A DNA stretch of 64,000 bases from a virus (IMGVR_UViG_3300025889_000071), one strand, 5' to 3'; positions 30,496 to 55,916 are shown, numbered from the stretch's first letter. Notes: generated by a model not told the origin, from the letters alone. Program-made: numbers and translations.

Positions 30496-30509
30496 GTATC
30501 AAATGATAC
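30496..30509. promoter_or_regulatory. NtcA-binding-site-like palindrome
   Basis: GTATCAAATGATAC = GTA-N8-TAC with extended GTATC/GATAC symmetry. Confidence 0.6.
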
Positions 30510-30522
30510 ACAACAAAAGTAC

Positions 30523-30551
30523 TTGACTAAATAAGGTATAAGGTCTATAAT
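30523..30551 (+). promoter_or_regulatory. Near-consensus sigma70 promoter for riboswitch transcript
   Basis: TTGACT (30523-28)-N17-TATAAT (30546-51); predicted TSS ~30558, 2 nt before the aptamer. Confidence 0.8.
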
Positions 30552-30559
30552 AGACCTGT

Positions 30560-30842
30560 CGTTCATCCAAGAGGCAGTCGCTGTGCACATAGCATAGAAA
30601 GACACATCTGGACGCAAGTAAGTCGCGGAACGGAGCGTTCATCCTATGATTGAGTTACTACTATTAGCTAATTTACATAGTCCTCCAAACATGACTTGTC
30701 AGCAAGTTAGAGAGGTGGCAGAAACCGTACTGGATTCTGATATGTCTCAACAAGATAAGCAAAGATTCTTATCTCGTTTGTTTGGACAGCATATGATGCT
30801 AAAGTGTCTTAAGAAATAGGACGCACACGACTGAAGGAACGG
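30560..30842 (+). ncRNA. Glutamine riboswitch (glnA-type aptamer) with greatly expanded P2 and P3
   Basis: P1 CGTTC (30560)/GAACG (30837); P2 TCC..GGA closing 41 nt; GCAAGTA junction; loop-E AGTA/GAA; P3 AGTCG (30621)/CGACT (30828); upstream of a YRG-motif peptide gene. Confidence 0.75.
30646..30819 (+). CDS. 57-aa ORF nested inside the riboswitch P3 loop
   Basis: MIELLLLANLHSPPNMTCQQVREVAETVLDSDMSQQDKQRFLSRLFGQHMMLKCLKK; GGAG at 30632-35; hydrophobic N-terminus. Confidence 0.6.
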   Translation: MIELLLLANLHSPPNMTCQQVREVAETVLDSDMSQQDKQRFLSRLFGQHMMLKCLKK

Positions 30843-30879
30843 GAGATTAAATTCACCCTAGTATTTCAGGAGAAACACA

Positions 30880-31047
30880 ATGAATACACTTCTCATGATC
30901 AAGAAGCAGATCGACAAAGCATCTGCACTTCACGACGCTCAAATTGCTCATACTGCATATCGTGGTGTTGAGTATAACGTATGTGGTCATGAACCACATG
31001 AGACTCACGGTACATTCTGCTATCGTGGTCATACTTATAACAAGTGA
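30880..31047 (+). CDS. DUF4278 / downstream-peptide-like protein (55 aa)
   Basis: MNTLLMIKKQIDKASALHDAQIAHTAYRGVEYNVCGHEPHETHGTFCYRGHTYNK, two YRGxxY motifs; AGGAG RBS. Confidence 0.8.
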   Translation: MNTLLMIKKQIDKASALHDAQIAHTAYRGVEYNVCGHEPHETHGTFCYRGHTYNK

Positions 31048-31070
31048 ATTACTTGTATTAGAATGCATAG

Positions 31071-31105
31071 GAGAGGTTGACTACCTCTCTTTTTTTGTCT
31101 ATAAT
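31071..31105 (+). terminator. Terminator whose top is a -35 box; overlapping promoter
   Basis: GAGAGGT-TGACT-ACCTCTC-T-tract; TTGACT (31077-82)-N17-TATAAT (31100-05). Confidence 0.75.
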
Positions 31106-31126: not shown

Positions 31127-31300
31127 ATGGATAGAGATAAATTAAAACTCATCATCAAAAACATGGAACTCCTTCTCGATTCTTTGAAAGCAGAAGTGCT
31201 TTCTGAACCTGAATCGTACTTACAGGGAGAATACTTAAATTATCCACAAATTACTGACTATGATGAGGTATTTGATGATGACGATGGATACCCCGATTAA
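31127..31300 (+). CDS. Conserved hypothetical protein (57 aa)
   Basis: Manually read MDRDKLKLIIKNMELLLDSLKAEVLSEPESY...DYDEVFDDDDGYPD. Confidence 0.7.
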   Translation: MDRDKLKLIIKNMELLLDSLKAEVLSEPESYLQGEYLNYPQITDYDEVFDDDDGYPD

Positions 31301-31304
31301 AAGT

Positions 31305-31484
31305 ATGTACGAAGAATTAAATTGCTTCGAAGAAGCCCTTAAACATTTCGGAACTAGAGTAGAGTTTGCTATTGCTATGGAGATGGGTAGAAAACTGACT
31401 CCAGAAGAAGCATATCAAATTATCAAAACTGAACTAAAAGCATTAAAATCCTGTCGTAAGAAATTTAAAAAAGATGAATGTTAG
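31305..31484 (+). CDS. Conserved hypothetical protein
   Basis: MYEELNCFEEALKHFGTRVEFAIAMEMGRKL.PEEAYQ.IK. Confidence 0.7.
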   Translation: MYEELNCFEEALKHFGTRVEFAIAMEMGRKLTPEEAYQIIKTELKALKSCRKKFKKDEC

Positions 31485-55406: not shown

Positions 55407-55478
55407 GGGAGTGTCGCATATTGGTTAATGCCCATGCCTTATAAGCGTGTGAACCGAGTTCAATTCTCGGCATTCCCA
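55407..55478 (+). tRNA. trnI: tRNA-Ile(UAU)
   Basis: Acceptor GGGAGTG/CATTCCC; anticodon stem CATGC/GCGTG, loop CTTATAA; T-arm CCGAG-TTCAATT-CTCGG; no CCA. Confidence 0.9.
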
Positions 55479-55481
55479 CTT

Positions 55482-55554
55482 GCTCCTTTAGCTCTCTGGT
55501 GAAAGCTCTCTGCTCATAACAGAAGAAAGGTCAGTTCGATCCTGACAAGGAGCA
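55482..55554 (+). tRNA. trnM: tRNA-Met(CAU), elongator or Ile2-type
   Basis: Acceptor GCTCCTT/AAGGAGC; loop CTCATAA; T-arm GTCAG-TTCGATC-CTGAC. Confidence 0.9.
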
Positions 55555-55557
55555 CTC

Positions 55558-55629
55558 GGGTGATTGGCGCAGAGGTAGCGCAGTAGATTTACATTCTATT
55601 GGTCACTGGTTCGAATCCAGTATCACCCA
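55558..55629 (+). tRNA. trnV: tRNA-Val(UAC)
   Basis: Acceptor GGGTGAT/ATCACCC; stem GTAGA/TCTAT, loop TTTACAT; T-arm CTGG-TTCGAAT-CCAG. Confidence 0.9.
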
Positions 55630-55633
55630 CCTT

Positions 55634-55916
55634 GCGAGTATGGTGGAATCGGTAGACACACCAGACTTATGAAAATTGAGCCTCATTTGAGAAATCTTAT
55701 GAGTGTAACTCCTCAAATTCGGGGAAACCTGTAAAATGGCAATCCCGAGCCAAGCATCGCAAGATGAAGGTGTAGAGACTAGACGGGGAGCACCTAAACC
55801 GAAAGGTATGGTGAAGGGATAGTCCAGACCACAAACCGTAAGGGCAAGGAAACTTGTAGTGGTAAGAAAATCTGTTGACCATTGCGGTCGTGGGAGTTCA
55901 AGTCTCCCTACTCGCA
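55634..55916 (+). tRNA. trnL: tRNA-Leu(UAA), split by group I intron (exons 55634-55668, 55867-55916)
   Basis: Joined exons give an 85-nt type II tRNA with anticodon loop CTT|AAAA, variable arm GACC..GGTC, T-loop GTTCAAGT. Confidence 0.92.
55669..55866 (+). mobile_element. Group I self-splicing intron (trnL-type, 198 nt, no ORF)
   Basis: Inserted U^AA; P1 CTT/GAG with U.G; P AAATTCGGGGAA, Q AATCCCGAGC, R GTGTAGAGACTAGACG, S GGATAGTCCA; GNRA loops in P6, P8, P9; ends in G. Confidence 0.93.

Follow-up and report, generated by a model that had tools for sequence, protein, structure and literature searches.

Why should a leader carry the words of a glutamine aptamer twice and enclose an open reading frame (ORF) among them, when riboswitches are usually understood as untranslated leaders acting on a downstream gene? 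The question is raised by a locus in the virus IMGVR_UViG_3300025889_000071, studied here in a stretch of 64,000 nt, one strand (the window). The answer that we consider probable, though with reserve, is an interlocked composite glutamine riboswitch that would pass between a state designated N and an alternative state, with opposite effects on two genes, a nested ORF of 57 codons and the DUF4278-like gene that follows it. Ligand binding, the choice of the glutamine-binding state and the sign of control on each gene are what we infer. The locus forms the leader of a small cyanophage operon of early type, in the order sigma-70 promoter, glutamine-aptamer core 1, core 2, Shine-Dalgarno (SD) sequence, DUF4278-like gene and terminator (Table 1). 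Its transcript is predicted to start at about 30558, 2 nt 5' of the first core, and since promoter and terminator flank the unit, the operon consists of the leader, the nested ORF and a gene of 55 amino acids (aa). The window belongs to a T4-like cyanophage, with a PhotoRC-II RNA, tRNAs and a group I intron (Rfam) and with ThyX at 31474, and Synechococcus phages are its best DNA matches.

The word CGTTCATCC occurs at 30560 and 30636, GGACGC(A) at 30610 and 30819 and GGAACGG at 30627 and 30836; the coordinates were checked by script. For CGTTCATCC, 0.19 occurrences are expected in 64 kb, and two were reached in 0 of 100 shuffles, while the arrangement GGACGCA-N10-GGAACGG is found twice with the same spacing against 0.00 expected. 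Relatives were collected by two pattern scans of IMG/VR, which returned 120 and 91 stretches, and 162 distinct architectures were parsed from them. An ORF is present in the second loop only, as in the window, in 91 of the 162, in both loops in 38, in the first loop only in 6 and in neither in 27; these last, compact forms measure about 115 nt in nature. The same layout was found in Sf-FS3, S-T4, S-CAM9, S-B05, RN05-S, ACG-2014i and ACG-2014d. A sequence-only reading made earlier had quoted these repeats and their pairings: all of them lie where it placed them, the shuffles exclude chance, and they are kept in the 162 distinct cyanophage architectures. It had also taken the duplicated words for strands of helix P1. 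They do include the P1 strands, but not only these, as each set of copies is a complete core made of CGUUCAUCC, a hairpin and then GGACGCA-N10-GGAACGG. Judged from these comparisons, it seems moderately probable that the duplicated words are two complete aptamer cores, interlocked and not merely adjacent, in one composite glutamine riboswitch.

The interlocking resides in P3, a helix that encloses the proximal GGAACGG, the second CGUUCAUCC, the ORF and the second GGACGCA. Both parts of the E-loop are present (AAGUA at 30616-20 and GAA at 30833-35), so that P3 and E-loop of the Rfam family RF01739 are found here; since one P3 and one E-loop serve two cores and P3 forms between the units, the cores are not structurally complete aptamers each on its own. 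The first hairpin covaries in 3 of 4 pairs, in line with the variable hairpin of RF01739, and the second hairpin, that is the UCC/GGA helix closing the ORF, covaries as well. Whether or not an ORF is present, the inner core invariably keeps the A after CGUUC, UCC/GGA, the whole GGACGCA and the G after GAACG. In the first core only, CGUUCG...GGGU-UGCA replaces CGUUCA...GGAC-GCA in the relatives L129, L133 and L137 and in sequences related to them; the pair at the base of the first hairpin thereby changes from A·C to G·U. As for P3 itself, pair 5 is G:C in 112 relatives, A:U in 49 and A:C in 1, which makes 161 of 162 paired against a shuffle mean of 127 and a maximum of 138; pair 2 is G:C in 159, A:U in 2 and G:U in 1, and U:A and U:G variants of the helix also exist. 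In ORF-bearing forms the varying base of the 3' strand is a synonymous third position (AAC/AAU), and covariation is equal in forms that have no ORF. For these two reasons the constraint on P3 acts on the RNA, and a coding effect as the source of the covariation is ruled out.

A further helix, here called anti-SD, pairs CUGAA (30831-35) with UUCAG (30865-69) and ends on the first G of the SD of the DUF4278-like gene. Its middle pair, pair 3, is G:C in 59 relatives, G:U in 27, A:U in 74 and A:C in 0, so that it is paired in 160 of 160, where the shuffle control gave a mean of 132.6 and a maximum of 145; both anti-SD states are found in both P3 clades. P3 and the anti-SD helix are mutually exclusive because they have 2 nt in common and the anti-SD helix takes the GAA of the E-loop. 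Two exclusive helices that each covary give, on comparative grounds, real support for a two-state design. A two-state switch had been proposed from the sequence alone, and exclusive pairing sets are indeed there, but the evidence for them comes from P3 against the anti-SD helix, neither of which had been named. Some relatives, among them L001 (1705-1760), L003 (1432-1480) and L100, have about 40 nt more between the distal GGAACGG and UUCAG, an element of the form ACGGAUCC, GNRA hairpin and GAGAAGGUUAA; its ends show a faint likeness to aptamer words. In the window, nothing but a short hairpin (30841-58) stands at this site.

We propose that in state N the first CGUUC (30560) would pair with the distal GAACG (30837-41), P3 would form, and AGUA and GAA would make up the E-loop. 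This would be a canonical type-I glutamine aptamer with a P3 that encloses the second core, in which the hairpin 30628-40 and UCCUAU/AUAGGA stand around the 57-codon gene; UUCAG would be free and the DUF4278 SD open, and the nested GGAG and AUG would be base-paired. In the alternative state, CUGAA would pair with UUCAG beside the DUF4278 SD, so that P3 and the E-loop could not form, and the first CGUUC would take the proximal GAACG, leaving the second CGUUC and the nested initiation region mostly unpaired. If the leader works like the ON-type glutamine riboswitches that control gifB and DUF4278 genes, glutamine would stabilise state N. State N could be captured only within about 25 nt of transcription, after the distal GGAACGG has been transcribed and before UUCAG, and glutamine would then raise the amount of DUF4278-like protein and lower that of the nested protein. 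Ribosomes on the nested gene would keep state N from forming.

Folding energies and probabilities given here are values of the nearest-neighbour model, which has no tertiary or ligand terms, and the tandem fold (fold T) together with the anti-SD helix makes a pseudoknot, so that the -66.4 kcal/mol given by RNAfold for this combination carries no meaning. Both the anti-SD helix and the inner hairpin are present in the minimum free energy (MFE) structure of 30558-30890 (-95.1 kcal/mol); for the nested part of fold T the value is -83.0 kcal/mol. At a transcript length of 77 nt the proximal GAACG is the partner of the first CGUUC (probability 0.99), and at 288 nt the distal one is (0.94). From transcripts of at least 318 nt on, the anti-SD helix forms (0.85-0.93) and P1 of fold N, the fold of state N, is at 0.01 or less; at 443 nt the first CGUUC has returned to the proximal GAACG (0.89). 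In the model, this dependence of pairing on length fits a kinetic ON switch. The sequence-only reading was right that the duplicated strands allow two registers. Fold N (-86.1 kcal/mol) stands 9 kcal/mol above the MFE. In the modelled ligand-free ground state the second CGUUC, GAG and AUG are largely unpaired, and in fold N they are paired. From this difference in the nested initiation region, a slight hint from a model, reciprocal control of the nested ORF and the DUF4278 gene appears plausible. That the alternative register would destroy the aptamer, as had been supposed, is not supported: complete cores are kept in both registers, and Rfam parses the relative L140 in this way. With two complete cores among the duplicates, ligand binding need not be lost in the alternative register.

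Several observations weigh against the composite switch, beginning with the energy of fold N just given. The model gives P3 a low probability, 0.15 even in the transcript of 288 nt; of GGAG, no more than the first G is covered by the anti-SD helix; and the GAA of the E-loop is AAA in 74 of 160 relatives. The P1 strands CGUUC and GAACG, each present twice, are invariant, and folds N and T have identical covariation scores; because these strands never vary, covariation does not decide between P1 partners. IMG/VR contigs are phylogenetically non-independent, and the covariation may rest on a handful of events. In several phages the two cores are parted by an HNH endonuclease gene, so the leader can do without the short inner hairpin. 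In a 341-nt Rfam scan Glutamine-I scored 15 bits (30558-30636; gathering threshold, GA, 35) and Glutamine-II 13.7 bits, both below threshold, and Rfam parses the compact relative L140 best as a pair of neighbouring aptamers, both sub-threshold (30.2 and 24.4 bits), which corresponds to fold T. Scans of the whole window at the gathering threshold and of 6 kb in E-value mode found no Rfam match at the locus. The window scores low because its large inserts defeat the Rfam model: the compact relative L100 reaches 46.4 bits for Glutamine-I (RF01739) against the GA of 35, in the outer reading with a 41-nt insert in P3, namely first CGUUC, first hairpin, GGACGCAAGUA, P3 with the 41-nt loop and distal GAAGGAACG. 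For Glutamine-II (RF01704; GA 33), relatives gave 28.1 and 25 bits, below threshold and with mismatches in the P2 of the model; a helix at this P2 position exists and covaries, yet competes with P3. RNAalifold on the 27 compact ORF-less relatives returned fold N pair for pair, including the hairpin of proximal GAACG with second CGUUC.

In the HNH-bearing variant the cores are separable by 600 nt. The inserted gene, at L005 1296-1868 in RN05-S, stands exactly between the proximal GGAACGG-AGCGU and the second CGUUCAUCC, with its stop codon 1 nt 5' of CGUUC, and is also found in S-H68, RB11-B and S-B43; in Sf-FS3 an HNH gene lies just 5' of the promoter. When bacterial and archaeal genomes were scanned with the pattern, 9 matches were obtained, mostly contigs of metagenome-assembled genomes, with no clear copy in a cellular host; one of them, binned as Synechococcus, is a contig of 194 kb and thus as long as a cyanophage genome.

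Judging from its coding signatures, the nested 57-aa ORF is a genuine gene. Of 117 loci, 114 have a loop length of 1 mod 3 and 115 an intact ORF. A set of 125 nested ORFs contains 0 in-frame stops, where the other two frames have 507 and 718, and entropies by codon position are 53.5, 30.2 and 68.6. An artefact of AT-rich sequence is ruled out by these signatures. The nested proteins have 52-66 aa, a hydrophobic N-terminus and two invariant Cys. Relatives of the window protein are 62-66% identical in S-CAM9, S-T4 and Sf-FS3, and its AlphaFold model consists of three helices (predicted local distance difference test, pLDDT, 81). The window protein had no match in Pfam or PHROGs and aligns with its family through the two invariant Cys; a profile search with the nested protein returned only marine viral or metagenomic hypothetical proteins, and its Atlas matches score below 0.9. 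In PHROGs, the common nested form is phrog_504 and the form of the first loop phrog_6471, both of unknown function. First-loop ORFs, of 65-75 aa, are present in 44 of the 162 architectures (e.g. L001 1265-1495) and start 10-13 nt from the predicted transcript start without an SD; they are paralogues of the second-loop ORFs (hhalign 92.9%, E 3.6e-7, Cys aligned to Cys). The nested ORF is not annotated in the deposited genomes of S-T4 (L002 1236-1403) and S-CAM9 (L003 1237-1407).

The start and stop codons of these genes are held in a fixed relation to the aptamer helices. The offset of the AUG is the same in 116 of 129 loci that have an ORF. The nested ORF continues through GAC GCA AAC GAC and ends with UGA or UAA inside CUGAA/CUAAA in 102 of 117 relatives, and in 12 of 117, including the window, UAG ends it at the first G of GGACGCA; the core 3' of this early stop stays conserved, which indicates a constraint at the RNA level. 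In the closing helix, the pair between the base after UCC and the base before GGAC is U:A in 25, C:G in 82, U:G in 4 and U:C in 1, thus paired in 111 of 112, and the A of AUG is paired in 92 of 112. The U of AUG, in the sixth pair, is paired in 52 of 112, so that of the start/stop pairing TCCTAT/ATAGGA put forward earlier the inner five of six pairs are kept in relatives but the sixth is not. For first-loop ORFs, covariation with the 5' strand extends to the stop codon itself (AUCC with UAG, AUCU-U with UAA, AUCU-C with UGA). A linker that forms GGAG occurs in 12 of 18 ORF-bearing and 6 of 32 ORF-less leaders (p = 0.0016), in a clade sampled without bias on the linker. The hairpin 30628-40, which the sequence-only reading had drawn as GAACG-GAG-CGTTC over the nested GGAG, is part of the window MFE fold as well as of the RNAalifold consensus of the 27 compact relatives, and its view that the ribosome-binding site and AUG of the nested gene are hidden in the aptamer fold is borne out, as the hairpin of proximal GAACG with CGUUC and the closing helix bury both. 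Since the geometry is fixed at two independent loops, the loops would be more than tolerated insertion sites, and the placing of start and stop codons at both argues, as far as sequence goes, for initiation gated by helix formation.

This geometry has to be set against other accounts of the locus. A related reading, which we entertain only tentatively, has translated genes inside the aptamer with ribosomes opposing glutamine, and makes of the inner core a second, circularly permuted and cooperative pocket; its P1 would be closed by the GAG loop, its GGACGCA strand would lie in the helix groove, P3 would be common with the outer aptamer, and glutamine would oppositely set two small proteins from one mRNA. 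A plain tandem doublet seems doubtful to us. Here two independent aptamers in series, the first CGUUC on the proximal and the second on the distal GAACG, would give a steeper dose response, with the ORF as passive cargo in a tolerant loop; the second aptamer would be of the pseudoknot type with CUGAA/UUCAG as its P2. Such doublets are known (tandem glutamine riboswitches, 157 doublets, PMC9481103), one metagenomic sequence of this kind was entered in the alignment of Weinberg et al. as first core with 3' flank, and several observations suit them: the identical GGACGCA-N10-GGAACGG spacing in both cores, the parse of L140 as two adjacent aptamers, the tolerated HNH insertion between the cores, the preference of the full-length RNA model for first CGUUC with proximal GAACG (0.89), and the paralogy of the loop ORFs, expected if core and ORF were duplicated as a unit. 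However, P3 between the N10 linkers covaries at two positions and crosses the tandem pairings, and the units can thus not be independent; taken by itself, neither of them has both a P3 and a full E-loop, nor does either reach the Rfam threshold, and Glutamine-II stays at 13.7-28.1 bits, below its GA of 33. Nor would a fixed AUG and stop in a helix, with a covarying stop codon, be expected of passive cargo.

Translational coupling, in our estimate unlikely, would place the decision with the ribosome: ribosomes ending the nested ORF would melt CUGAA/UUCAG and turn DUF4278 on, the two proteins would rise and fall together, and the sensor would mainly gate initiation of the nested ORF. The stops are well placed for this, as 102 of 117 nested ORFs end inside the anti-SD 5' strand CUGAA/CUAAA, the UAG of the window is 13 nt 5' of CUGAA and within a ribosome footprint, the nested stop is 61 nt before the DUF4278 AUG, and in HNH-bearing relatives the nested AUG comes 12 nt after the HNH stop. 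But 33 of 162 relatives without an inner-loop ORF keep the anti-SD helix and P3, so that the switch would work without the nested gene, and ribosomes would have to reach the nested stop at a useful rate. It is quite improbable that the inner copies are pure decoys, as the sequence-only reading proposed, with only the outer aptamer binding glutamine and the proximal GAACG and second CGUUC merely competing to unfold it; exact copies able to exchange partners and the presence of a single P3 and a single E-loop would suit decoys, yet in every relative, ORF-bearing or not, the inner copy keeps nucleotides for which a decoy has no need. Chance repeats in an AT-rich intergenic region around a spurious ORF, which the small size of the words might suggest, are hardly credible: shuffles, conservation in 162 distinct architectures, covariation and coding signatures refute them.

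Table 1. Features of the composite leader and its operon, with coordinates in the 64,000-nt window.
Feature	Coordinates	Strand	Remarks
Sigma-70-type promoter TTGACT-17-TATAAT	30523..30551	+	11/12 consensus matches; same layout in relatives
Core 1 5' strand CGUUCAUCC	30560..30568	+	CGUUC provides the 5' side of P1, and the first hairpin begins with UCC; Rfam Glutamine alignment
First hairpin (P2 in type-I naming), UCC/GGA closing a 41-nt loop	30566..30612	+	closing pairs covary strongly
GGACGCA junction strand and AGUA (E-loop 5' half)	30610..30620	+	matches GGACGGAAGUA of the RF01739 consensus
P3 5' strand AGUCG	30621..30625	+	pairs with 30828-32; covariation
Proximal GGAACGG, first copy of P1 3' strand	30627..30633	+	
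Hairpin GAACG-GAG-CGUUC	30628..30640	+	holds GGAG 30632-35, SD of the nested ORF, 10 nt 5' of AUG
Core 2 5' strand CGUUCAUCC	30636..30644	+	
ORF-closing helix, 5' strand UCCUAU	30642..30647	+	includes AU of the start codon; pairs with 30816-21
Nested ORF, 57 aa	30646..30819	+	hydrophobic N-terminus, two invariant Cys, three predicted helices
ORF-closing helix, 3' strand AUAGGA	30816..30821	+	includes UAG stop 30817-19
Second GGACGCA, core 2 junction strand	30819..30825	+	
P3 3' strand CGACU	30828..30832	+	
Anti-SD 5' strand CUGAA	30831..30835	+	2-nt overlap with P3; contains E-loop GAA 30833-35
Distal GGAACGG, second copy of P1 3' strand	30836..30842	+	
Anti-SD 3' strand UUCAG (30865-69)	30865..30872	+	overlaps SD GGAG (30869-72) of the DUF4278-like gene
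DUF4278-like (IF17-like) gene, 55 aa	30880..31047	+	gene presumably controlled by the leader
Intrinsic terminator ending the small operon	31069..31100	+	also given as 31069-31091

The product of the 55-aa gene resembles DUF4278 and, by the Pfam threshold applied to its sequence, is not a member: PF14105 is matched with 20.6 bits (E 5.9e-4, residues 25-53), short of the cut-off of 25.3 bits. Its match to phrog_545 is strong (E 1.3e-32). Around the operon, GTATCAAATGATAC at 30496-30509 is a perfect GTA-N8-TAC (NtcA-type) palindrome 5' of the -35 box, with its centre about 55 nt before the predicted start of the riboswitch transcript. A 15-nt palindrome, GGTCTATAATAGACC (30542-30556), is centred on the -10 box; this or a similar palindrome surrounds TATAAT in many relatives and may be an operator or a 5' hairpin. 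A second promoter TTGACT-17-TATAAT (31077-31105) overlaps the operon terminator, and 3' of it lies another ORF of 57 aa with an acidic C-terminus (31127-31300). Elsewhere in the window (55407-55848), the group I intron match of 63 bits is located at 55659-55848 directly after three tRNA genes.

If the composite riboswitch is true, helices of a metabolite sensor would close around protein-coding genes, with start and stop codons inside the aptamer stems, and what is called a tandem phage glutamine riboswitch would be a single interlaced structure with strands that swap partners. Because one stem closes around the nested gene, glutamine sensing and nested translation would compete on the same RNA, and one mRNA could combine nitrogen status and the translation of its own message as inputs. 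Through this operon, T4-like cyanophages are probably able to read the glutamine and glutamine-synthetase circuit of their host and to manipulate it. The element escapes standard Rfam scans altogether, and the nested genes are often absent from genome annotations.

Glutamine riboswitches, their occurrence in cyanophages and tandem copies are already known (PMC2864571, PMC9481103, PMC9964418). They turn DUF4278/gifB genes ON, DUF4278/IF17-like genes being the usual cyanobacterial targets (PMC6212724), and an alternative structure occluding the ribosome-binding site has been postulated for a glutamine riboswitch (PMC6698751). A literature search for ORFs inside glutamine aptamers, a common P3 or partner-swapping copies found no description, and an earlier one is possible, as Ames & Breaker 2011 lay outside its scope. 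The closest relative is Glutamine-I (glnA RNA motif, RF01739; gifB leader of Synechocystis, PMC6212724; structure 5DDP, PMC6698751). The locus has its CGUUCA-CC, GGACG-AAGUA and GAAGGAACG, a three-way junction with P1, variable hairpin and P3 with E-loop, and the position 5' of a DUF4278/IF17-like gene. In contrast to Glutamine-I, P3 of the window is no local hairpin and closes over a second core and a gene of 174 nt, the long-range capping pair is C...G where the type-I consensus, as read from its consensus lines, has G...C, and start and stop codons of translated ORFs are in aptamer helices. With Glutamine-II (Downstream-peptide motif, RF01704; PMC6698751), found with DUF4278 peptides of marine picocyanobacteria, the second core and CUGAA/UUCAG share the type-II order, that is CGUUCA-CC, hairpin, GG-CGCA, linker and a helix with GGAACGG in its loop, with GGACGC...GGAACGG in use; however, the putative P2 competes with the outer P3, adjoins the SD and would act like an expression-platform helix. 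Tandem doublets (Weinberg 2010, PMC2864571; Sherlock 2022, PMC9481103) also have two cores in a row before one gene, and the glnA alignment of 2010 (PMC2864571) already holds one such metagenomic sequence. They were described as aptamers in series, whereas here P3 and E-loop are common, P1 would be swappable and genes stand in the loops. Finally, as in leader-peptide attenuators and translation-coupled switches, ribosomes on an upstream ORF would select one of two exclusive folds, but the upstream ORF of this locus encodes no codon-sensing leader peptide: it is a member of a conserved family of 52-66 aa with two invariant Cys, placed inside a metabolite aptamer.

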